Assembly (NCBI GenBank): GCA_964576275.1 | Contig: CAZNUN010000004.1 | Coordinates: forward strand, 28,736 to 92,735 | Origin: an uncultured bacterium | GTDB taxonomy: Bacteria; Fidelibacterota; UBA2242 | DNA: 64,000 bases | Direction of reading: 5' to 3' | Shown here: piece after piece, positions 4,802 through 47,039 of the stretch | Layout: every line of letters begins with the position of its first letter | Position numbering within the stretch: position 1 is the stretch's first letter | Notes under the pieces: generated by a model | Databases searched by the model: none | What the model saw: the letters and a program-made list of their open reading frames with translations, nothing else | Told to the model about the DNA's origin: nothing | Made by a program: the position numbers and the translations under genes

Positions 4802-7615
4802 TTATAACCGGATAGTTTGTTGCTCACCCGTGTATTTAATGACCTTGTCGGGCTGCGGGGTGCTTTCTATTCCGGTGCCATGGCCAGGTCTGACTAATAC
4901 CACCTGAAATTGTCGTTCGGTCAGCATGCCGGGAAAAGAACCATTGCGCGGCCCGATCGTCAATTGCTTTTTAGCGTCGTTCCACTGGAAGGTAATCGTG
5001 GCGTAAATCCCTTTCTCGTAATTGTAATTATCGTTCTCGTCCTCGTAGAGCGTGAAACTGCCATCCGCGCCGGGATAAATCCGCAGTTCGAGCGGATCGG
5101 CCGGTTTTTCAGTGGCATATTGTACGAACGGTCCAAGCGGCACGACCGAACCGGCTTTAATCAACAGCGGAATTTTATCGATCGGAGCGTCAGCCGTTAT
5201 GCTTTGACCGCCGGTATAGGTTGCCCCGGTCCAGAAATCGATCCAGGCCGTTTCGGCGGGCAGGTATACCGACCGGGTTTGCGGGCGCGGTTCCATAGTC
5301 TTTTCGCGTGCGAACATTTCCGGCGTTTTCCAGTTCAGGATCATCTTAGCGGCGCCGGTGGAACGATTCTGCATTTCTAGCCGAAAATCGTATTCCCGTC
5401 CGGCTTCCAGTCTGACCGTATCCGTGTACTGTTCGACGCTGGTATAGACGATCGGAAGTTCCTTGCCGTCGATGAAAAGACGTTTGGCGTCGTAACTAAT
5501 CAGGTGAAACTGATACGAACCACTTTCCGGCGGAGACAGTTTGCTCTCCCAGCACACCGCGAATGCGGAATCGGTCATGTAATCCGGCCGGCCGGTGTAC
5601 CACAGGTGATTGATGTCGGGCTCGATTTGCTTGCGGGACAGGTCGGCGAAATCCGGATTGTGGTAATATTTGACCTTCAGGCCCGGCTTGCCGTCGGCAG
5701 TTTGGAAATATTGCGGTGAGATCAGAACGCTTTTCTCCGGCGGGCGGTGCAACATATATTCGGTGACGGGACAGACCATAACTGATGGGCCGAACATATA
5801 TTGATCGGCGATTGCATAAGTCTTTTGGTCTTGCGGGAAATCCATCGGCAGGCCGCGCATCATGGTATAACCTTCATCGGTTACCCGCCAGGCCAGCGAA
5901 TATATGTAGGGCAGCAGCCGGTAGCGCAGATTATCGAATTTGATCAGGTTTTCGGAAAACTCGCCGAATCGCCAGATTTCACGGGGCGTCTCACTGCCGT
6001 GCGCCCGGAAAATCGGGCAGAATGTCCCGAACTGGAACATGCGGGTATAGAGTTCCTGGTAAGCCGGATCCTGACCGCCGTGAATGAACACTCCGCCGTA
6101 AGCTCCGATCACGAATCCACCGATGTCGAAAGTCCAGTAAGGCACGCCCGCCATACAGAAATTCAGCCCGGCGCTGATCTGGTCGCGGTAAATCTCCCAG
6201 CTGGCGCCGATGTCGCCCGACCAGGTCGTCGCAGCGGCCCGCTGCTGTCCGGCATACACCGAACGCGTCAGCATGTAAACGCGCTTTTGTTCGGATTCCC
6301 GGCGCTGATTCTGGTAGAGTTTATCCATCATCACCAGCGAATAGGCATTCAGGTAACGCGCCCAGCTGCCGAGGTAATTATTCTCGACCTTTTTCATTTC
6401 GTATTCTTCGGCCGCTTTGGTGGTGGCATTGATGATGTCCGGTTCGGTGGAATCGATCCAGAGCGCATCAATCCCGGCGGAAATCAGCCCTGTTTTAACA
6501 TAAGACCAGTAGAGATCGTTGGCGTCCGGATTGAAGGCGTCGAAATATTTGAATGAAGCCCAGCCGACGGTATTAAACAGGTAACCGCGGGCGGCCATAT
6601 CTTTATGGATCGGCGTATTGGGTCCCAGCCCCGGCCAGATCGAGATCATGATGTGAAAGTTTTGGTCGTGGATGCGCTTAATCATGTCCTTCGGTTCGGG
6701 ATACCTTTTCGGGTCGAAAGACATCGCACTCCAATTGGCATTGTCGCCCCAGTAATTCCAGTCCTGGATAATATTGTCAACCGGAATGCGCCGCTGGCGA
6801 TACTCCTTGACAACGTCCAGCAATTCATCGCGGGTATGATAATGCTCCTTGCTCTGCCAGTAACCATAAGCCCACTTGCCGTACATGGGCGCTGACCCGG
6901 TCAGCTGGCGGTAGCCGCCAATCACCGCGTCCATATTCGCGCCGCCGATCAGGTAATAATCGAGATTGTCGCCGACTTCCGACCAGAGCGACATAGTTGT
7001 GGCGGTATCCTGGAAAACAGTCTTGGAATAATTATCCCACAGGATGCCCCAGCCGTTGGTCGAGATCAGGAAGGGCGTCACGGCGTCGGTATTGGTCTGG
7101 ACGAGCGTTACGCTCCGCCCGCGGTAATTCATATAACCGTTCTGATGCTGCCCGAGGCCGAAAAGTCCCTCGTCCGGCGTCAGTTTGAAATCTTGCTGCA
7201 CGCTGAAAGCCTTTTCGCCGCCGATGGTGAGCGGGTCGATGACGGTATTTTTCGTTTCTTTAAGGATTATTTGGCCATCGGCAGTGAAATATTCGATATG
7301 CCCGTCGCGCTTCGAGAGTTTGAGGGTCATCTGCCCGGTTTTCAGCACCACGGTGTTGCGATTATCCTTAATGTCAATCGGTATTTGCGGCAGGCTGTCC
7401 CGGATAACCATCAGGCTTACTTTTTCCGGAGATGATTCCGGCCGCCATTTCACGACCCGGGCGATGTTGCCGGCATGAAATTGAACCCGGACATTCAGGT
7501 TTTTGGTTTCTAATTGCAATCCGTTTTGTATTGACGTTGTTTTACCCGGCTGGCCGCATTGCGAGCATGCCAGCAGGGCTGTCGTAATAAGATAAATCCC
7601 GCGAGTTTTCATCAT
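4802..7615 (-). CDS. glycoside hydrolase family 31 (alpha-xylosidase/alpha-glucosidase-like) with a PA14-like insertion; lipoprotein
   Basis: GH31 catalytic block DAFNPDA…W…GIDALWIDSTEPD (cf. DFTNP…WIDMNEP). A KWAYGYWQSKEHYHTRDEL region. PA14-like segment (VKYYHNPDFADLSRKQIEPDINHLWYTG). Lipobox LLAC. 937 aa. Confidence 0.8.
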   Translation of the reverse strand: MMKTRGIYLITTALLACSQCGQPGKTTSIQNGLQLETKNLNVRVQFHAGNIARVVKWRPESSPEKVSLMVIRDSLPQIPIDIKDNRNTVVLKTGQMTLKLSKRDGHIEYFTADGQIILKETKNTVIDPLTIGGEKAFSVQQDFKLTPDEGLFGLGQHQNGYMNYRGRSVTLVQTNTDAVTPFLISTNGWGILWDNYSKTVFQDTATTMSLWSEVGDNLDYYLIGGANMDAVIGGYRQLTGSAPMYGKWAYGYWQSKEHYHTRDELLDVVKEYRQRRIPVDNIIQDWNYWGDNANWSAMSFDPKRYPEPKDMIKRIHDQNFHIMISIWPGLGPNTPIHKDMAARGYLFNTVGWASFKYFDAFNPDANDLYWSYVKTGLISAGIDALWIDSTEPDIINATTKAAEEYEMKKVENNYLGSWARYLNAYSLVMMDKLYQNQRRESEQKRVYMLTRSVYAGQQRAAATTWSGDIGASWEIYRDQISAGLNFCMAGVPYWTFDIGGFVIGAYGGVFIHGGQDPAYQELYTRMFQFGTFCPIFRAHGSETPREIWRFGEFSENLIKFDNLRYRLLPYIYSLAWRVTDEGYTMMRGLPMDFPQDQKTYAIADQYMFGPSVMVCPVTEYMLHRPPEKSVLISPQYFQTADGKPGLKVKYYHNPDFADLSRKQIEPDINHLWYTGRPDYMTDSAFAVCWESKLSPPESGSYQFHLISYDAKRLFIDGKELPIVYTSVEQYTDTVRLEAGREYDFRLEMQNRSTGAAKMILNWKTPEMFAREKTMEPRPQTRSVYLPAETAWIDFWTGATYTGGQSITADAPIDKIPLLIKAGSVVPLGPFVQYATEKPADPLELRIYPGADGSFTLYEDENDNYNYEKGIYATITFQWNDAKKQLTIGPRNGSFPGMLTERQFQVVLVRPGHGTGIESTPQPDKVIKYTGEQQTIRL

Positions 7616-10440: not shown

Positions 10441-10750
10441 TTTTTGTCATTCGTGGTCATTCGGCCCGAAGCGGGCTTGTCATTCGATAGTCATTCGATT
10501 GTCATTCAATAGTCATTAGGGCATTAAGGCATTCATGCAATCATGCAATTTGAATTCTGGAATTTGCCCCGAAGGGGCTCCAGCGGATCAACCTTCAATC
10601 TACAATTGAGGTTATGTATTGTCATTTATGGTCATTGATAGTCAGGAATTGTTAGGGATAGTCATTCAATAGTCATTAAGTCAATGAGACATTCAGCCAT
10701 TCAATCATTCAATCTACAACCTCCAACCTCCAATTAGTAAAATAGCCTTG
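10441..10750. repeat. ORF-less intergenic array of degenerate ~10-bp GTCATT(C/G)(A/G)AT units in two tandem ~150-bp halves, with small GC hairpins (ggcccgaagcgggc; gccccgaaggggc)
   Basis: At least 12 GTCATT copies are directly visible. The same motif family flanks the four-helix-bundle gene at 45007-45582. Confidence 0.8.
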
Positions 10751-20081: not shown

Positions 20082-21449
20082 ATGAATAACGAAGAATTAA
20101 GATTATTAATCCAACAGGGAGAATCGGAAACGATTGAGTTTAAGGAAAACTTCGGGAATGAAGCTATTGAATCTGCCGGAGCTTTCGCCAATACCCGCGG
20201 TGGACTAATTCTGATCGGAGTTAACAGACATGGTCATATAAATTGTGTTCAGGCGACTCAGGAAACGTTAAAAGATTGGGCTAATCAGGTTGGACAATGT
20301 AGTGAACCCACATTTACGCCATTATTTGAAATTGTTCCGACTGACAACGGTAATGTTGTCGCTATTCACATCAGTGAATATCCGCTCAAACCGGTTTCGA
20401 TTCGCGGCAGATTCTATCGACGGGTCAATGCCAGCAACCATCAGATGATACCAGATGAAATCGCACAGATGCACCTTTATTCAATCGGTTCCAGCTATGA
20501 TGCCATCTCAAGTCCGAACGCAACTCTCGATGATATATCAGAAGATAAAATCAGAGATTATTTGCAGAAGGCTAACGCTACCGGACGCCGGAATTATGAT
20601 ATCAGTCGACCACCTCTTCAAATACTTGAAAAAGTTGAATTGATCAAATCGGGCAAGCCGACTATTGCTGCAGTTCTATTATTTGCAAAAGAACCTCATA
20701 ATAAAATTCACCAGGCTATCGTACATTGCGGGCGATTTAAGGAACTCACTACTATTATCGATGACCGATTGATAGAAGGTACAATTATTGAGCAGATTGA
20801 CGAAGTTATGGCTTTCCTGCGGAAGAACACCAGCGTTCGTTTTGTATTTACCGGAAAACCCGAACGTGAAGAAGTCTGGGATTATCCATTGGAAGCTCTG
20901 CGGGAAGCCGTAACGAATGCCATCTGCCACCGCGACTATGGCAATACCAGCGATATTCAAATTAAAGTTCACGACGATTATCTGACAATTTGGAATCCGG
21001 GCGGACTATTACCGGGGATGTCAATCGAGGAATTGTATGATCCTAATCATTCTTCCAAACCCCGCAATCGGCTAATCGCCCAGGTTTTTAATGACATTAA
21101 ATTGATCGAAAAATACGGTTCCGGCATCCAGCGTATCTTAACCGAATGTGCAAAAGTCGGCATTCCGGCCCCATCGTTTGAAGAGAAGTTCGGTGGCTTT
21201 CTGGTAACCTTCCGAAAGGATATTTACACTGAAGACCATCTTAAAGCCATGGGATTGAACGAACGACAGATAAAGGCCGTAGTATTTACAAAAAAGAATG
21301 GTAAAATAACAAATAAACAATATCAGGAAATAACCGGCATCCAGAAACGACAAGCCACTGTTGACCTTCAGGATATGGAAAATAAAGGAATACTCACAAA
21401 GGTCGGAAAAACCGGTAGAGGAACCTTTTACACCCTAAAGGGGCATTAA
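20082..21449 (+). CDS. COG2865-type ATP-binding protein: Schlafen/AlbA_2 DNA-binding domain, HATPase_c_4-like domain and C-terminal wHTH
   Basis: AlbA_2 hallmark (ESETIEFKENFGNEAIESAGAFANTRGGLILIGV) at the N-terminus. C-terminal HTH (…ITNKQYQEITGIQKRQATVDLQDMENKGILTKVG). Confidence 0.7.
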   Translation: MNNEELRLLIQQGESETIEFKENFGNEAIESAGAFANTRGGLILIGVNRHGHINCVQATQETLKDWANQVGQCSEPTFTPLFEIVPTDNGNVVAIHISEYPLKPVSIRGRFYRRVNASNHQMIPDEIAQMHLYSIGSSYDAISSPNATLDDISEDKIRDYLQKANATGRRNYDISRPPLQILEKVELIKSGKPTIAAVLLFAKEPHNKIHQAIVHCGRFKELTTIIDDRLIEGTIIEQIDEVMAFLRKNTSVRFVFTGKPEREEVWDYPLEALREAVTNAICHRDYGNTSDIQIKVHDDYLTIWNPGGLLPGMSIEELYDPNHSSKPRNRLIAQVFNDIKLIEKYGSGIQRILTECAKVGIPAPSFEEKFGGFLVTFRKDIYTEDHLKAMGLNERQIKAVVFTKKNGKITNKQYQEITGIQKRQATVDLQDMENKGILTKVGKTGRGTFYTLKGH

Positions 21450-21488
21450 TGGGGCAAAAGGGGCATTAAAGGGGCGTTAATGGGGCAC
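21440..21488. repeat. tandem ~11-bp repeat (ggggcattaat-like, ~5 units) overlapping the 3' end of the COG2865 gene
   Basis: ggggcattaatggggcaaaaggggcattaaaggggcgttaatggggcacag. Confidence 0.7.
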
Positions 21489-24786: not shown

Positions 24787-25046
24787 TAACCTAAAAAAGA
24801 AATTTCATTTAACAAAGAAATTATCGGACTGATCCGTCTTTTCCACTATCACGTAAATTTAGGACTGGCAACTCGCAACTCGTAACCCGCAACCCGCAAC
24901 TTCAACGGAACATGTTTCCCGGGCGGGACAATATTTTCCGTGGCAAATCTTACCCGCGAGATTTTTCCCGACAGAAAAATGCTGGCATAACCTTTGTCAT
25001 GATGAAAAAGGTGATTCTTTGAAAAAATAATAAGAAAGGAGCCCCT

Positions 25047-33430: not shown

Positions 33431-33545
33431 TATCTGTTAGTTGCGAGTTACGAGTTACGAGTTTACAGTTTCCGGTTTACAGTTACCAGTTTACAGTTTG
33501 TCATCACGCTTTACGACTTACGCCTTACGAATTCACCTTTTACCA
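33431..33545. repeat. dispersed intergenic repeat element built from GTTACGAG and GTTTACAGTT short tandem motifs
   Basis: gcgagttacgagttacgagtttacagtttccggtttacagttaccagtttacagtttgtcatcacgctttacgacttacgccttacg. Related copies lie at 22941-23016, 23391-23468 and 24866-24905. Confidence 0.7.
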
Positions 33546-42284: not shown

Positions 42285-43631
42285 TTACTTAATTTTCAGA
42301 TATTCCTTCCAGACGCGCGGACTGGCCTTTTGAGCTTCACCGCGAATTAATTCTTCATCGAGAGTCAAAAATGTTCCGTCGTCATAAATGCGCTGGCCGG
42401 CGACCATGACCATCGTGGCCCGGGAATTATACATTCCGTAAATGAGGTGGCCGTTGAGATTTTCAGTGTGGAATGGCGTGACCGGGACATAGTCGAAAAC
42501 GGCAATATCAGCCGCCACGCCGGGCACGATCTGGCCTAATTTAACGTCGAGGAAGCGGCTGGCGATTGCGGCGTTGGTTTTAAAAAGACAGCGCGGCAGA
42601 TAATCGAAAATCAACGGACTGGCGATTTGTGCCTGGCGTTGCGCCAAATAACCGGCGCGCAAGGTTGCCAGCATGGAAGAGGTCATGCCGTCTGTGCCCA
42701 GCCCGACTGGAATCTCCTCCGCCAGCGGCAAATCCAGGCGACCGACTGCATTATTTTGATTCGATTCCGGATTGTGAACTATCGTCGCGCCGGAGCCGGC
42801 GACTTCGGCCAGTTCGTCTGAGTCGAGATGTACGCCGTGCGCCAGGAGCGTTTTCTTTCCCATCAATCCAAAGTGTTTCAGGCGGCTGACCGGTCCGGCA
42901 TAATCCAACTCGCGGCAATGCTCCACGTCGCTTTTATCTTCGGCGCAGTGAATATGAACGCCGACTTCCGGATCGTAATGCCGGGCGATTTCCGCCATTG
43001 AATTTTCCGATAAAGTCAGATTGGCATGTAAACCGAGTGTGCCTCGCAGGCGCTTGTTTTCACGATGCGCTTCGATGAAATTCAGATTTTCCTGCAAGCC
43101 CTGGTCGAATACTTTCTGACCGTCGCGGTCGGAAATTTCATAACACAGGCAGGCGCGCAGGCCGCTGCGATCAACGACGGAAGCAATATTATCGAGACCG
43201 CCTTTGAGGTGCCGCGGCGAGGCGTGATGATCGAAAATCGTCGTCACGCCCGCCTGAATACTGTCTAAAAGCGAAAGAAGGGCGGATAATTGGACGGCCT
43301 CCGGATCGAGCGCTTTATCGAGCCGCCACCAGAGATTTTCCAGACATTCCCTGAAATTTGTAATCGGCGCGACCGGCGCGAGTCCTTTCGACAGCGCCGA
43401 GTAAAAATGATGATGCAGATTGATCAATCCCGGAAAGATCACCTTGCCCTGCGTGTCGTAAATATCCACCTTCTCCGAGTCCGTGATTTTCGGAAAAACA
43501 TCGGATTCATCGCCGACCAGTCTGATTTTCCCGGCGGCAATATAGACGGCGCCGTCCTCATAAATTTTATTGAGACCGTCGAACAGCGGGCCGCCGTAAA
43601 CGACGATCGGATTATTTTCGCTTTTGTCCAT
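42285..43631 (-). CDS. amidohydrolase-family aminohydrolase (SsnA / chlorohydrolase-like)
   Basis: Metal-binding HxH (GLINLHHHFYSAL) and downstream His/Asp ligands of the TIM-barrel amidohydrolase fold; 448 aa. Confidence 0.65.
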   Translation of the reverse strand: MDKSENNPIVVYGGPLFDGLNKIYEDGAVYIAAGKIRLVGDESDVFPKITDSEKVDIYDTQGKVIFPGLINLHHHFYSALSKGLAPVAPITNFRECLENLWWRLDKALDPEAVQLSALLSLLDSIQAGVTTIFDHHASPRHLKGGLDNIASVVDRSGLRACLCYEISDRDGQKVFDQGLQENLNFIEAHRENKRLRGTLGLHANLTLSENSMAEIARHYDPEVGVHIHCAEDKSDVEHCRELDYAGPVSRLKHFGLMGKKTLLAHGVHLDSDELAEVAGSGATIVHNPESNQNNAVGRLDLPLAEEIPVGLGTDGMTSSMLATLRAGYLAQRQAQIASPLIFDYLPRCLFKTNAAIASRFLDVKLGQIVPGVAADIAVFDYVPVTPFHTENLNGHLIYGMYNSRATMVMVAGQRIYDDGTFLTLDEELIRGEAQKASPRVWKEYLKIK

Positions 43632-43640
43632 GAATTCCTC

Positions 43641-45032
43641 TCAAATATTGCGTTTGATAAATTGCCCCGACCGCGTATCCGCCAGGCCGTTTACATCGTC
43701 ATAAACCAAATTGCCGCGCAGATAAACGGATTTGATTTTGCCCTGAAACTGGAGGCCTTCGAACGGCGTAAATTTCCCTTTCGAGAGGAAATTGGCTCCG
43801 TGAATAATCGTTGTTTGCGTTTCGTCAATGCAAACCAGATCGGCGTCGCTGCCAACCTGCAAAGTACCTTTTTGCGGGTAAAGCCCAAAGCGTTGGGCGG
43901 CGTTGGTCGAGGTCACTGCGACCAGCTGAGTCAGAGTAAGCCGCCCCTTTCGAAAACCTTCGGAATACATAAAGGGCAACAACGTGCCGACGCCGGAGAT
44001 GCCACCGTAATCGCTCCAGATCGAGCCGGTTTGTTTTTGTGGCAGAGGACAAGGCGCGTGATCGCTGGCGATGAAAGCCAGTGTGCCGTTCGCCAGCGCC
44101 TGCCAAAGCTGTTCGGAATCGGCTTTGGCCTTGACGACGGGTGCAGTTTTTAAAATACTGCCTATTTTCAGAAAATCCTCGATTGAAAAAGCCAGATAAT
44201 GCGGGCAGGTTTCGCCGGTAATGGCGGCGCCCTGAGATTTGAAATCGGCGATCAGTTCCGTGCCGCGACCGGAAGAGACATGCACGATGTGCACCGGCGA
44301 GCCGCTTTTTTCCGTCAGTTCGCCGATCCGGCGAATGGCGGCAATTTCTCCTTCTACCGGACGGGATAGCGCATAAGCGCCCGGATCGGTGCGGCCTTCC
44401 GCTACTAAGTTTTCTGTTAATGGTAGTACGATTTCAGCGGCTTCAGCGTGATGTCCGATTAAGACTCCCAATTTACCGGCGAACTTAATGACTTCTGCGA
44501 GTTCGTGCGGCGTCAAATGCGTGAAAGTCGGCATCCCGGAAAGAGAATAGGTCTTGAATCCGACGACTCCGGCATTCCATAAAGCTTGCATATTGGCCTG
44601 CCAGTTCGCTTCCTTTATACAGTTCCCAGAAACGCCACCCCACAGCGCATAATCGATATATGAACGGCCGCGAATCGCCGAAAGTTTTTTTTCTAGATTT
44701 GAAATATTCGTGACCGGCGGCAGAGAAGTGCAGGGCATGTCAATTACGGTTGTGATCCCGCCGCTGGCCGCGAAAGCCGAGCCGGCCTCGAAAGTCTCGC
44801 GCTCCTCAAAGCCTGGCGTATTGAAATGCACATGCGGGTCGATGCCGCCCGGTAGGACGAGCATCTCATGCAGGTCAACGATCTGGCAATTTTCCCCGAC
44901 ATTGAGATTAGTTCCGATAGCGGCGATTTTTCCGTTTTCGACTAAAATGTCAACTATAACACTTTCGTTACCATGCAAGGTCGGGATTCGGGTGTTTGTA
45001 AAGAAGGTCATACGATTGTCATTTAACGTCAT
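43641..45032 (-). CDS. cyclic amidohydrolase (D-hydantoinase/dihydropyrimidinase/allantoinase family)
   Basis: GGIDPHVHF metal-binding motif; 463 aa. The annotated N-terminus (MTLNDNRM) is encoded by the GTCATT repeat array, so the true start may be the internal Met at ~45011. Confidence 0.7.
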   Translation of the reverse strand: MTLNDNRMTFFTNTRIPTLHGNESVIVDILVENGKIAAIGTNLNVGENCQIVDLHEMLVLPGGIDPHVHFNTPGFEERETFEAGSAFAASGGITTVIDMPCTSLPPVTNISNLEKKLSAIRGRSYIDYALWGGVSGNCIKEANWQANMQALWNAGVVGFKTYSLSGMPTFTHLTPHELAEVIKFAGKLGVLIGHHAEAAEIVLPLTENLVAEGRTDPGAYALSRPVEGEIAAIRRIGELTEKSGSPVHIVHVSSGRGTELIADFKSQGAAITGETCPHYLAFSIEDFLKIGSILKTAPVVKAKADSEQLWQALANGTLAFIASDHAPCPLPQKQTGSIWSDYGGISGVGTLLPFMYSEGFRKGRLTLTQLVAVTSTNAAQRFGLYPQKGTLQVGSDADLVCIDETQTTIIHGANFLSKGKFTPFEGLQFQGKIKSVYLRGNLVYDDVNGLADTRSGQFIKRNI

Positions 45033-45078
45033 TGATGGTCATTGATAGTCATTTATAGTCATTTGTGGTCATTGATGG
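45007..45078. repeat. left GTCATT repeat array (7 × ~10-bp units) flanking the four-helix-bundle gene
   Basis: gtcatacgattgtcatttaacgtcattgatggtcattgatagtcatttatagtcatttgtggtcattgatgg. Confidence 0.8.
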
Positions 45079-45552
45079 AGACTGATTGTTACTATTAAGA
45101 AGAGGATTTGCCGGATTATCGGAATTTTCTGCTGATGAATCGGCGCCATACTTCGATGATGGTTCATCGACCTGTTTACCGATAATGCTGATATAGTTAT
45201 TTATTTTTACGGATAATTTCTCAATATCGTTTGTCAACTTTAAATATTCACTCTCAGTTATCAGTTTCCGATTATTAGCCTTTTTAAGCCAGCATTTTGT
45301 TTCTGACAAAGAACCTCTGGCATAATAACAAAAATGCTTATTTTCATTAAAGTGATAACGTCCAAAACCTTCCGCCAGATTCGCGGCTACTGAATCAATA
45401 GCATCAATTAATTGAATCCCGACGGTCTGTTTTTCTAAATAACTCCATTTTTGTACGATTTGCCAGATTTGTTCGCCTATCTCATTTGCCAGATTGTAAA
45501 CAATTAAATCATCTAATTGCATGAGAATAATCCTTCTGACAATAAATGACAA
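45049..45552 (-). CDS. four-helix-bundle protein (23S rRNA intervening-sequence protein family, TIGR02436/PF05635)
   Basis: …YNLANEIGEQIWQIV…SVAANLAEGFGRYHFNENKHFCYYARGSLSETKCWL… is the characteristic family core. It is inserted between two catabolic genes and flanked by inverted GTCATT arrays. Confidence 0.75.
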   Translation of the reverse strand: MSFIVRRIILMQLDDLIVYNLANEIGEQIWQIVQKWSYLEKQTVGIQLIDAIDSVAANLAEGFGRYHFNENKHFCYYARGSLSETKCWLKKANNRKLITESEYLKLTNDIEKLSVKINNYISIIGKQVDEPSSKYGADSSAENSDNPANPLLNSNNQSPSMTTNDYK

Positions 45553-45582
45553 TTCATGACAAACAATGACAACTAATGACTT
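45543..45582. repeat. right inverted ATGAC repeat array (4 units) flanking the four-helix-bundle gene
   Basis: aatgacaattcatgacaaacaatgacaactaatgac is the reverse complement orientation of the left array. Confidence 0.75.
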
Positions 45583-47039
45583 TTCTCCACAAGTTCATTG
45601 AATTGGATGATCAGTTCGTCGATTTTGTCGGCGAGACCATGTACCCGACCCCAGTACTTTTCGGCGTCGTACCACTGGGCATTGATTTCTTCGACGGTTT
45701 TACCTTGCTGTTCGATCCAGGTGAAATATTTCAGGTTGTGAATGCGCCGGCGGTCGTAGTAATTGAGTTCTTGCATAGTGTCGGTGCGCAGACCGATGAG
45801 ATGCTGATAAAAATCGCGTTCGGCGCGGGAGAGAGTGTAAGCACCATTGGCTTCTTCGTATTCTTTCAGGCGCGAGTTGTACATTTCCATAGAATCTGTA
45901 AAAACGGTCAGGATAATGTCTTTGGAAGTCAGCTCGTAATATTTGGCGAATTTGATGGCGCTGAGCAAGTTGGCAATGCTGGAAATTCCAAGCAGATCCA
46001 GTTGCCCGACCAGACTTTCGGGGACGCCGGCTTTGACCAGGTAATCGCGTCCGGTTGGGGTATTGAAGAGCGGGAGGAGATTCATCGGGTCGTTATCGTC
46101 AATGGCAATGACCATGTCGGTGTTGCGGACATTGTGAATCCAAGGCACATGCTTGTCGCCGATGCCTTCGATGCGGTGACCGCCGTAGCCGTTCAACATC
46201 AGCGTCGGGCATTGGAGAGCCTCGCTGGCGGCGATTTTAATAGCTGGGAAGCGTTCTTTGAGAAAGTCGCCGCTGGCCAGGGTGCCGGCTGAACCGGTGG
46301 TGAAAACGGCACCGGCAAAACGTTCTTGCGGGCGGCGGATTTGCTCCAGAATCTCCTTAAAGGCGTGACCGGTCACTTCGTAATGCCAAAGATAATTTCC
46401 GAATTCGTCAAATTGATTGAAAATGACAATGTCCTGCCGGGTTCGGCGCAATTCGTGACATTTATCGTAGATTTCCTTGACATTGCTCTCACAGCCGGGC
46501 GTGGCGATGATCTCGCCGGCGACGGTTTTCAACCACTCGAAACGTTCGCGGCTCATGCCTTCCGGCAGAATAGCGATCGACTCGCAGCTCAGCAAAGCCG
46601 CGTCGTACGCTCCGCCGCGGCAATAGTTGCCGGTCGAAGGCCAAACCGCTTTCTGATAGGTCGGATCGAACTGGCCGGTCACCAAACGCGGAACGAGACA
46701 GCCGAAAGTGGCGCCGACTTTATGCGCGCCGGTCGGGAACCATTTGCCGACTAAGGCGATGATCCGCGCCGGCACGCCGGTCAGGGCTGGTGGCATTTCC
46801 ATAAAGTTCACGCCGTTGAAACCTCCGCCGCTTTTCACCGGTTCATTTTTCCAGGTGACGCGGAAAAGATTGAGCGGATTGACTTCCCAGAGGCCGACTT
46901 TTTTCAGGTCGGCTTTGATATTGGCTGGAATTTTGGTTGGATCTTTGTGCTCAGCAAAAGTCGGGATGGTTATGTTACGTTCACGGCAACGCTGAGCGGT
47001 GCGTTTTAACTGCTTTTCATTAACGGTCAGATCAATCAT
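45573..47039 (-). CDS. PLP-dependent enzyme, fold type II (TrpB/CysK/threonine dehydratase superfamily) with N- and C-terminal extensions
   Basis: Lys-containing motif PTGAHKVGATFG. Glycine-rich PLP-phosphate loop (STGNYCRGGAYDAALL). 488 aa. Confidence 0.55.
   Translation of the reverse strand: MIDLTVNEKQLKRTAQRCRERNITIPTFAEHKDPTKIPANIKADLKKVGLWEVNPLNLFRVTWKNEPVKSGGGFNGVNFMEMPPALTGVPARIIALVGKWFPTGAHKVGATFGCLVPRLVTGQFDPTYQKAVWPSTGNYCRGGAYDAALLSCESIAILPEGMSRERFEWLKTVAGEIIATPGCESNVKEIYDKCHELRRTRQDIVIFNQFDEFGNYLWHYEVTGHAFKEILEQIRRPQERFAGAVFTTGSAGTLASGDFLKERFPAIKIAASEALQCPTLMLNGYGGHRIEGIGDKHVPWIHNVRNTDMVIAIDDNDPMNLLPLFNTPTGRDYLVKAGVPESLVGQLDLLGISSIANLLSAIKFAKYYELTSKDIILTVFTDSMEMYNSRLKEYEEANGAYTLSRAERDFYQHLIGLRTDTMQELNYYDRRRIHNLKYFTWIEQQGKTVEEINAQWYDAEKYWGRVHGLADKIDELIIQFNELVEKSH

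Follow-up and report, generated by a model that had tools for sequence, protein, structure and literature searches.

Positions 45007-45582 of the window (the whole stretch of 64,000 nucleotides analysed here, taken from contig CAZNUN010000004.1 of an uncultured bacterium of the Fidelibacterota) are one copy of a widespread family of promoter-less cassettes, in which a gene for a four-helix-bundle (FHB) protein is enclosed by two arrays of short units with a GTCATT core. The cassettes follow the formula (GTCATT N1-5)n, ribosome-binding site, FHB open reading frame (ORF), (N1-5 AATGAC)n, and lie in the sense direction within co-directional gene strings, usually a few tens of nucleotides (nt) from the flanking stop and start codons. 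The protein belongs to the PF05635/TIGR02436 family (23S rRNA intervening sequence (IVS) protein, S23p, Avd-like), and the cassette looks like an undescribed operon-invading element akin to the rRNA intervening sequences. Seen in this way, the FHB family travels as a defined cassette whose cis elements are oriented, phased and subfamily-specific repeat arrays, and this cassette inserts cleanly into operons of at least ten phyla and turns over between close relatives. To our knowledge, nobody has yet explained the intervening sequences of 23S rRNA and the ORF conserved in them, a curiosity since 1993, and we know of no function for the very large Avd/S23p family outside the diversity-generating retroelements (DGRs).

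Architecture and recurrence of the cassette

The minus-strand transcript of the locus runs from a gene for a pyridoxal phosphate (PLP)-dependent enzyme through the FHB gene and an allantoinase/hydantoinase-family amidohydrolase gene (hereafter hydantoinase) to an SsnA-like aminohydrolase gene, with the following features.

45573-47039, minus strand: PLP-dependent enzyme, 488 amino acids (aa)
45573..45575, minus strand: stop codon TAG of the PLP enzyme, within the first GTCATTAG unit; the C-terminus is aligned with the end of the empty-site orthologues
45537..45582, minus strand: 5' array, in mRNA sense GTCATTAGTT GTCATTGTTT GTCATGAATT GTCATTTATT GTCAG, four full units and one partial unit, period 10
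45531..45537, minus strand: Shine-Dalgarno-like AGAAGGA, 8 nt 5' of the FHB ATG, as read from the sequence
45049..45522, minus strand: FHB gene, 157 aa plus stop (PF05635, TIGR02436)
45007..45078, minus strand: 3' array, in mRNA sense seven (N4)AATGAC units, period 10, the last unit, CGTATGACC, degenerate
45009..45011, minus strand: probable true start codon ATG of the hydantoinase/allantoinase (MTFFTNTRIP...), in the last array unit
44996..45592, minus strand: predicted long-range RNA stem looping out the FHB ORF (minimum free energy (MFE) and centroid structures, z = -3.8)
43641-45032, minus strand: hydantoinase ORF as called
42285-43631, minus strand: SsnA-like aminohydrolase

Seen on the plus strand, the 5' array reads AATGAC at 45545, 45565 and 45575, CATGAC at 45555 and a partial TGAC at 45537, while the 3' array reads GTCATA at 45008 and GTCATT at 45018, 45028, 45038, 45048, 45058 and 45068. 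An initial annotation of this DNA had described an FHB gene between inverted arrays of a ~10-bp GTCATT motif, with the hydantoinase and PLP genes as same-strand neighbours, and both statements are confirmed. The pattern GTCATTN4GTCATT (at most one mismatch) is matched 11 times in the window; the expectation is 0.47, each of 100 shuffles fell short of 11, and both arrays were also detected by Tandem Repeats Finder. The unit counts had been given as seven and four; the seven stand, and the other side has four full units and one partial unit. A repeat search of the locus gave array arms of 47 nt that are 77% complementary. The arms of the predicted stem are the 5' array plus 45583-45592 (10 nt of PLP coding sequence) on one side and the 3' array plus 44996-45005 (10 nt of hydantoinase coding sequence) on the other. 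The insert as a whole is discrete and measures ~560 bp, and it contains the only FHB gene among all ORFs of the window (phmmer).

The same architecture was met in the first homologues inspected, on three unrelated contigs (55-66% identity), which share the layout between same-strand genes: the neighbours are a carboxyltransferase and an enoyl-CoA hydratase gene in one, and a same-strand shikimate kinase gene lies directly downstream in another. A cross-phylum survey with one genome per species, made up of 80 loci from about ten phyla with FHB relatives of 47-63% identity, extends it to Ignavibacteria, Bacteroidales, Cloacimonadota, Verrucomicrobia, Scalindua, Nitrospinia, Desulfobacterota, Calditrichaceae, Aminicenantes, KSB1, Marinimicrobia and a Clostridia bin. 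Within 120 nt upstream of the gene, GTCAT occurs 228 times in sense and 20 times in antisense, and within 200 nt downstream there are 311 copies of ATGAC against 15 of GTCAT. The enrichment is 40- to 46-fold over the background of the same loci and is limited to about 250 nt per side. At least two units are present on both sides in 64 of the 80 loci, and fewer than two on both sides in five. The upstream neighbour is co-directional in 72 of 75 cases (p = 9e-8 against a baseline of 0.72) and the downstream neighbour in 64 of 70 (p = 6e-5 against the same baseline). The first unit follows the upstream stop codon after a median of 21 nt, and a median of 49 nt separates the last unit from the next in-frame ATG. 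At the position equivalent to AGAAGGA, GGAGG-type sites are found in the non-Bacteroidales homologue loci.

The idea that the repeats arose by chance or slippage, with no relation to the gene, is hardly credible. Short tandem repeats are indeed common in the intergenic regions of this genome, but the excess of matches in the window and, above all, the oriented motif around homologues in 80 genomes, with its roughly 40-fold local enrichment, refute it.

At FHB loci the spacing of the units is 10 nt in 151 cases, 11 in 78, 7 in 33 and 8 in 25, with no case of 9 and a single case of 12. A stop codon follows immediately after 40% of the upstream units (GTCAT-TAA/TAG/TGA), and every AATGAC holds ATG/TGA. 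Because the spacing is never 9 nt and the units are rich in stops and ATG, stops and starts are offered in all three frames within three units. Mini-hairpins of the GCGAAGC or GGCGAAGCC type often serve as spacers between the downstream AATGAC units, which then measure 15-16 nt (L015, L028, L033, L070, L078, L083 and L087), and upstream GTCATT units are interspersed with the complementary GGCTTCGCC; in L015 a longer spacer hairpin is mirrored nearly exactly in both arms. A likeness of GATAGTCATTTATAG to a Fur box was rejected because the spacers vary freely from locus to locus.

Second cassettes occur 1-2 kb away in L061 and L068, where the two proteins of the same genome are 81% and 68% identical, respectively; no near-identical cassette copies were seen among the surveyed loci. 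Arrays are not universal in members of PF05635, and an iterative hidden Markov model search of 1.37 Mb of collected sequence for divergent subfamilies gave none beyond the 108 already found. Searches with tblastn gave no matches in phage records and, in plasmids, one distant (32%) cyanobacterial homologue without arrays, and a scan of viral contigs gave no cassette, so that these three kinds of search provide no evidence for a phage or plasmid vehicle. At the locus itself, a promoter and terminator scan found no terminator and no promoter above the level of shuffled sequences; a promoter-like TTGTCA/TATTCT match, whose end coincides with the ATG, was dismissed. Rfam (E-value mode, 44000-46500) gave no rRNA or other family, only two sub-threshold chance matches, and PADLOC gave no defence-system match at the locus.

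The protein, the gene ends and turnover at the junction

The FHB protein scores 86.1 bits against PF05635 (cut-off 33.8; residues 5-108) and 81.3 bits against TIGR02436 (cut-off 24). Its domain comprises residues 3-117, followed by a disordered tail (118-157). The AlphaFold2 (AF2) monomer model (pLDDT 82) predicts helices at 3-23, 28-54, 61-84 and 90-117, and in a Foldseek search with this model the best match was 2gsc (TM(target) 0.89, rmsd 1.0), followed by 2rld, 4dwl and 8ub7; the predicted structure thus matches the up-down bundles of Xcc0516, BT_0352 and Avd (4dwl/8ub7). Neither a nuclease or recombinase fold or motif nor a helix-turn-helix or other DNA-binding domain was found by profile and structure searches. 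An identical protein is encoded on 12 metagenome contigs. A dN/dS of 0.08 between L093 and L096 points to strong purifying selection where the gene is vertically inherited, and 24 alignment columns are invariant in homologues across phyla; on these two grounds the protein is judged to be functional.

The arrays run into the coding regions at both ends of the insert. The 167 aa initially given to the gene assume a TTG start; the ATG at 45522 is the likely one and gives 157 aa, a choice shared by the JGI gene call and borne out by homologue N-termini. The arrays had also been said to encode the C-terminus of the FHB protein and the N-terminus of the hydantoinase, and the first of these holds: the final eight residues, SMTTNDYK, and the TGA stop are array-encoded (…TCA ATG ACC ACA AAT GAC TAT AAA TGA), and the C-termini of homologues often read …MTND, …TNDK or …NDQ, that is, translated AATGAC units. 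The hydantoinase extension MTLNDNRM, on the other hand, is almost certainly an artefact of ORF calling, and the real start would be the ATG at 45011, because the junction AATCGTATGACC(T/A) is kept in L093, L096 and L098, because insert-free orthologues begin equivalently (MSSTLFCQARIP, MSILFTNCRIP against MTFFTNTRIP), and because allantoinase profiles align only from residue 22 of the long ORF. The PLP stop lies in the array context AAA AGT CAT TAG. The further claim that the insertion had created fused gene ends applies only marginally: the PLP C-terminus and the hydantoinase N-terminus are of normal length, and one stop and one start overlap the outermost units. Such arrays can mislead gene callers, as is seen from the seven spurious N-terminal hydantoinase residues and the variable tails on the cassette protein. 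Public gene calls start the hydantoinase at the ATG at 45032 (463 aa), with the seven array-encoded extra residues MTLNDNR, and the called lengths of its orthologues vary (445, 456 and 459 aa; gene calls in L001-L006).

The closest homologues of the PLP enzyme indicate Marinimicrobia, and orthologous PLP-hydantoinase loci exist both with and without the insert. Filled loci are those of the window, L093, L096 and L098 (PLP identity to the window 84%, 82% and 77%, respectively). Empty are L101 (PLP 75% identical), in which TAA, 9 nt and ATG follow one another, and L103 (74% identical), with a gap of 30 nt; array remnants were found at neither of the two empty sites. The filled relatives have the gene plus the arrays and the empty ones neither, and this presence/absence pattern, together with the discreteness of the insert, bears out the initial description of an insertion module. 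Filled L098 is nearest to empty L101 (PLP identity 83%), which means either a clean loss or an independent gain.

Beyond presence and absence, the cassette has been exchanged. In the flanking genes, equal distances separate the window, L093 and L096 (PLP 82-84%, hydantoinase 74-77%), whereas the FHB protein of L093 is 82% identical to that of L096 and both are only 53-54% identical to that of the window; these two rank 95th and 81st of 107 in similarity to the window protein, behind proteins of other organisms (60-65%). This divergence in spite of equidistant flanking genes implies that the cassette was replaced in the lineage of the window, and the right-hand junction unit AATCGTATGACC is unchanged through the replacement. 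In L098, the FHB gene (5528-5947) lacks the segment with the invariant RGS..E (YARGS..E) motif (…FCFYVCGFIKTWL…) and the arrays are degenerate (GTCAC, GTGAC), so that this copy looks, from its sequence, to be decaying. In short, cassettes have been gained, have decayed, have been lost cleanly and have been replaced by non-orthologous cassettes at the same site over evolution. No target-site duplication is visible between filled and empty junctions, although the flanking proteins are only 75-83% identical and a short duplication could have eroded.

The turnover bears on the possibility that the FHB protein simply binds DNA and so regulates the catabolic genes on either side, the arrays being its operator (iteron-like) sites; we regard this as very improbable. 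Helically phased direct repeats are what one typically finds at cooperative operator or centromere-like sites, and the gene cluster, with SsnA, resembles one for purine/hydantoin catabolism. However, orthologous operons function without the FHB gene, the protein has no helix-turn-helix or other DNA-binding domain, and the neighbours are unrelated between loci (acyl-CoA carboxylase/enoyl-CoA hydratase, shikimate kinase, DNA repair, and also cas genes, PMC3936711). The last of these refers to Zhang and Ye (2013), who reported 18 such genes in cas loci, the interval between cmr3 and cmr2 being one example, and took them as a functional association (PMC3936711). Our results suggest that the FHB genes in cas loci represent ordinary operon invasion, and earlier functional associations of this kind can be reread as hitch-hiking insertions.

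How the cassette may act and move

The reading that we favour, with a probability of somewhat less than one half (about 0.45), is that the cassette works like an rRNA intervening sequence moved into mRNA: it would be co-transcribed with the host operon, its ORF looped out, and the resulting stem processed or bound, while the design of the arrays protects the frames of the neighbours. Read-through from the host operon would transcribe the cassette, and the two arrays could then pair in the transcript as a long imperfect stem with the FHB ORF in its loop. This stem would be the cis-acting element, which we expect to be cut by RNase III and/or bound by an FHB pentamer, the latter by analogy with Avd and its adjacent stem-loop. 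Units spaced by 10, 11, 7 and 8 nt would make the element frame-proof by offering stops and starts in every frame, so that the FHB ORF and the genes on its two sides could each be correctly ended or begun whatever the register of insertion. As to movement at the DNA level, our first guess would be that cassettes are exchanged or captured via their arrays, by recombination that is homologous or array-directed; RNA-mediated movement is conceivable on account of the kinship with Avd.

The model of an intervening sequence in mRNA draws on the cross-phylum layout, on the turnover at the junction, on the functional protein, on the spacing of the units and on precedents within the family, and also on the complementarity of the arms, which in the window amounts to 77% over 47 nt with z = -3.8 for the MFE stem. 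In long-range folding of 70 homologue loci, 60 had at least 25 flank-to-flank pairs in the MFE structure (median 43.5, against 17.5 in shuffled sequences). Inverted 12-mers common to the two arms number 2.21 within the same locus against 0.43 between loci (0 of 5000 permutations), and the unit counts upstream and downstream are correlated (rho = 0.48, p = 6e-6).

There are parallels with known intervening sequences. Those of Leptospira, Coxiella burnetii, Xanthomonas and Brucella encode the same protein family in sense to the host transcript, have complementary flanks that enclose the ORF in a predicted stem, have no promoter or terminator of their own, and show a patchy distribution with decay of the ORF in some lineages. 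In Coxiella, an S23p ORF lies between inverted repeats, excision is by RNase III, and variable tandem heptamers, (GACAGAT)n, stand 5' of the ORF (PMC4990558); in having a variable number of tandem units before its ORF, here units containing ATGAC, this element too resembles the cassette. There are differences as well. The host of the cassette is the stop/start junction of a protein-coding operon and not helix 25 or 45 of 23S rRNA; its flanks are arrays of 10-11-nt units with a GTCATT core, whereas those of the rRNA elements are unique inverted repeats; and its ORF has a dN/dS of 0.08 and a good ribosome-binding site, whereas the Coxiella ORF is thought to be unexpressed. Excision by RNase III is known for the rRNA elements, whereas the cassette is likened to them from sequence and folding. 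In the literature on the family and on repeats, no description of the arrays or the cassette was found except for the Coxiella heptamers; a search on the kinship of HEPN, Avd and intervening sequences gave nothing relevant, and one for the raw motif gave primer sequences only.

A second parallel is Avd of the DGRs, which shares the fold and family of the cassette protein by Foldseek (4dwl, 8ub7), whereas sequence identity is only about 11% and the flanks of the cassette are tandem arrays. Cryo-EM shows the Avd pentamer bound to an RNA stem-loop whose sequence adjoins the avd gene, and the 3' end of avd pairs with sequence past the template repeat (bioRxiv 10.1101/2023.10.23.563531). Pentamers are known for both 2gsc and Avd (PMC4990558; bioRxiv 10.1101/2023.10.23.563531), and the cassette protein was modelled as a monomer. 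The list of called genes and Pfam families of L001/L002 contains no reverse transcriptase up to 10 kb from the cassette in either direction, and for this reason the cassette is not filed as a DGR. There is also no long direct repeat in 44900-45700, a segment of 800 bp that is too short to decide on template and variable repeats, for which no search was made.

Several observations weigh against the model of an intervening sequence in mRNA. Among the mismatches between the arms, G.U is no more frequent than A.C (31 against 44, p = 0.17, in a test weakened by the register ambiguity of tandem arrays), so that the classical sign of selection on the sense RNA is missing. The array stem is here a prediction of in silico folding, and ribosomes translating the FHB ORF would be expected to break up a stem of such long range. 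The GTCAT core is kept across phyla beyond the needs of pairing and changes with the protein subfamily, which hints at sequence-specific recognition that is equally possible on double-stranded DNA, and the dominant period of 10-11 nt fits the helical repeat of DNA and of A-form RNA alike. Finally, the direct TACTGC arrays around the second gene of L036 cannot make a stem, and most GTCATT arrays in metagenomes are without an FHB gene.

Some of these points suit the main rival, a mobile element that acts at the level of DNA, which is possible but doubtful. Here the inverted arrays would be terminal-repeat binding sites for an FHB pentamer or a host factor, the protein would be the mobility or recombination factor of the element itself, gene-less pairs would be non-autonomous derivatives resembling miniature inverted-repeat transposable elements (MITEs), and the sense orientation would merely reflect the survival of expressed copies. 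The arrays are inverted with a fixed polarity, and a period of 10-11 bp brings every motif to the same face of B-DNA. The GTCAT core is kept across phyla, other FHB subfamilies have ATGGTT/AACCAT (L064) or TAAGGC/GCCTTA (L048), and there is no G.U bias between the arms. Gene-less inverted pairs exist (in L058, L075 and L054 and at 22 metagenome sites), orthologous sites can be filled or empty, with an apparent clean loss in L101 and the replacement of a cassette, and the distribution of the cassette is incongruent with taxonomy. Yet the candidate factor is a helical bundle of 120 aa that lacks any known fold or motif of a nuclease or recombinase, the comparison of filled with empty junctions reveals no target-site duplication, and near-identical copies were not seen, the same-genome pairs being only 81% and 68% identical. 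In addition, searches gave no cassette in viral contigs or phage records and essentially none in plasmids, and neither the co-directionality (96% and 91%) nor the codon-aware spacing is predicted by a pure DNA model. In its fullest form, the FHB protein with its cognate arrays would be an autonomous mobile element of ~0.5 kb and a new class, invading both operon stop/start junctions and rRNA helices (where it would be the intervening sequence). Its pentamer would recognize the phased GTCATT units and direct excision, copying or recombination, possibly via an RNA intermediate like that of Avd, and the gene-less pairs would be its MITE-like forms; we consider this rather unlikely. The proposal of the initial annotation that the inverted repeats are how the gene spreads is likewise still conjectural, as no target-site duplication, near-identical copies or known transposase were found.

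Other compact elements share some features with the cassette. Like MITEs and small insertion sequences, the cassette is compact, has inverted ends of short repeated motifs, occurs in gene-less derivatives consisting of the ends, and is polymorphic for presence and absence, and terminal inverted repeats can be said to be present in modified form, as inverted arrays of short units. It differs from them in that the FHB ORF is the sole ORF and no transposase is recognizable, no target-site duplication and no near-identical copies are seen, and the sense orientation in operons is near-absolute. Without a transposase or a visible target-site duplication, it is not classed as a canonical insertion sequence or MITE. 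With integron cassettes it shares a promoter-less single gene, expression by read-through, one orientation and exchangeability at a fixed site, whereas it has two tandem arrays instead of an attC palindrome and is scattered in ordinary operons; there is no attI nearby and no integrase in the 20-kb context, and it is not counted as an integron cassette. Repetitive extragenic palindromic (REP) sequences and bacterial interspersed mosaic elements are also short palindrome-forming repeats between co-transcribed genes, and the gene-less GTCATT/AATGAC pairs are similar to them. REPs, however, are single palindromes of about 35 nt tied to RAYT transposases, whereas the cassette combines tandem 7-11-mers with a helical bundle. 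Treating the family as a cassette makes the nucleic acid bound, the cutting of the transcript and the mode of movement testable.

Arrays without the gene and other repeat motifs

Arrays of the GTCATT type are not confined to FHB loci. A metagenome scan with the pattern GTCATT(N1-5)GTCATT(N1-5)GTCATT gave 140 array sites on 120 contigs, of which 108 were assessable by the length of the flanks: two have a downstream FHB gene, 22 are gene-less inverted pairs, three have an inverted array farther away and 81 are solo. The association between array and gene that had been put forward therefore holds in one direction only, as nearly all genes of the subfamily have arrays (80 genomes) but the gene is present at only two of the 108 metagenome sites. 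Gene-less GTCATT/AATGAC pairs are also seen in the surveyed loci L058, L075 and L054. The dominant period is 7 in 49 of the 81 solo arrays, against 10 or 11 in 81 of 97 FHB-flanking arrays, and the 9-nt period, absent from FHB loci, is present in gene-less arrays (5 of 81 solo arrays and 7 of 22 empty pairs). Solo arrays have no strand bias with respect to genes. They were not accepted as the same element, since the class is heterogeneous and mostly heptameric. Almost every gene of this FHB subfamily, then, has arrays, and GTCATT repeats are a broader and heterogeneous phenomenon.

These numbers are pertinent to the view that GTCATT-type arrays are independent, widespread intergenic repeats, serving as portable homology and not as parts of an element with its own machinery, into which FHB genes are captured or exchanged by homologous recombination after horizontal transfer. 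We hold this to be unlikely. In its favour are the 103 of 108 assessable metagenome arrays without an FHB gene, the presence in the window of an FHB-less site (10446-10680) and of short-repeat clusters at 21436, 24864 and 33439, the replacement of the window cassette with the distal right junction (AATCGTATGACC) still orthologous, and the direct arrays around the second gene of L036, as expected from insertion into an existing tandem array. On the other side, the solo arrays mostly belong to another class, with period 7 in 49 of 81 and no strand bias, whereas FHB-flanking arrays have 10-11 nt in 81 of 97; the motif covaries with the protein subfamily; the empty orthologous sites are array-free; and the FHB frame enters the array, which provides its tail and stop in many lineages and so makes gene and array one unit.

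The covariation is seen in three distant FHB genes (about 25% identity) that adjoin GTCATT-type cassettes and carry motifs of their own.

L064 4190-4800: ATGGTT upstream and AACCAT downstream, inverted
L048 4020-4460: TAAGGC upstream and GCCTTA downstream, inverted
L036 3400-3960, second gene: TACTGC on both sides, direct

Repeat arrays may be general to several subfamilies of PF05635, the motif changing along with the protein.

The FHB-less site of the window is the following.

10446..10680, plus strand: second GTCATT site, period 10-11, two clusters in sense to xfp (phosphoketolase) and ispG, with no FHB gene and no inverted partner

In the same xfp-ispG intergenic region (10446-10733), the GTCATT units are followed by CATTAAGG, GCAATCAT, CATTCAAT and CAACCTC repeats, and two GC-rich tetraloop hairpins are recognized, GCCCGAAGCGGGC near 10467 and GCCCCGAAGGGGC near 10567. 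Other intergenic clusters of the window, all of 7-11-nt tandem repeats, are GAGTTAC / TTTACAG / TTACGNC at 33439-33529, 3' of a plus-strand gene, and, at 21436-21487 and 24864-24901, (TAAAGGGGCAT)n and (AACTCGC/AACCCGC)n. The AGTTAC/AATTAC repeat type resembles arrays downstream of the cassette gene in L047, L068 and L076. Such clusters may be left over from cassettes with other classes of motif, or be related to them.

In the upstream part of the source contig (L001/L002 5014-5603), a PhdYeFM/ParE toxin-antitoxin pair and several small unannotated ORFs were noted between the genes for the copper ATPase and the NTPase; the pair and these ORFs are missing from the syntenic L093 stretch and represent a second small variable island near the cassette.

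Two further kinds of array were noted in the collected contigs. Gene-less inverted GTCATT(A/T)AG arrays occur in L134 (2636-2800 and 6773-6940), L136 (2442-2600) and L139 (1126-1280); the pairs enclose an AT-rich perfect palindrome (…AATAATAAAAATATAAATATTTATATTTTTATTATT…), there can be more than one per contig, and they look like a distinct MITE-like element with the same end motif. Heptameric GTCATTC arrays lie directly 5' of an ORF in L153 (about 1107-1180) and L169 (about 228-300), on two metagenome contigs of about 53-55% G+C. The N-terminus of this ORF (MSVLVDKNTRLVVQGITG) seems to resemble that of succinyl-CoA synthetase alpha (sucD), and the two cases suggest that solo arrays can also be conserved at operon-internal junctions.

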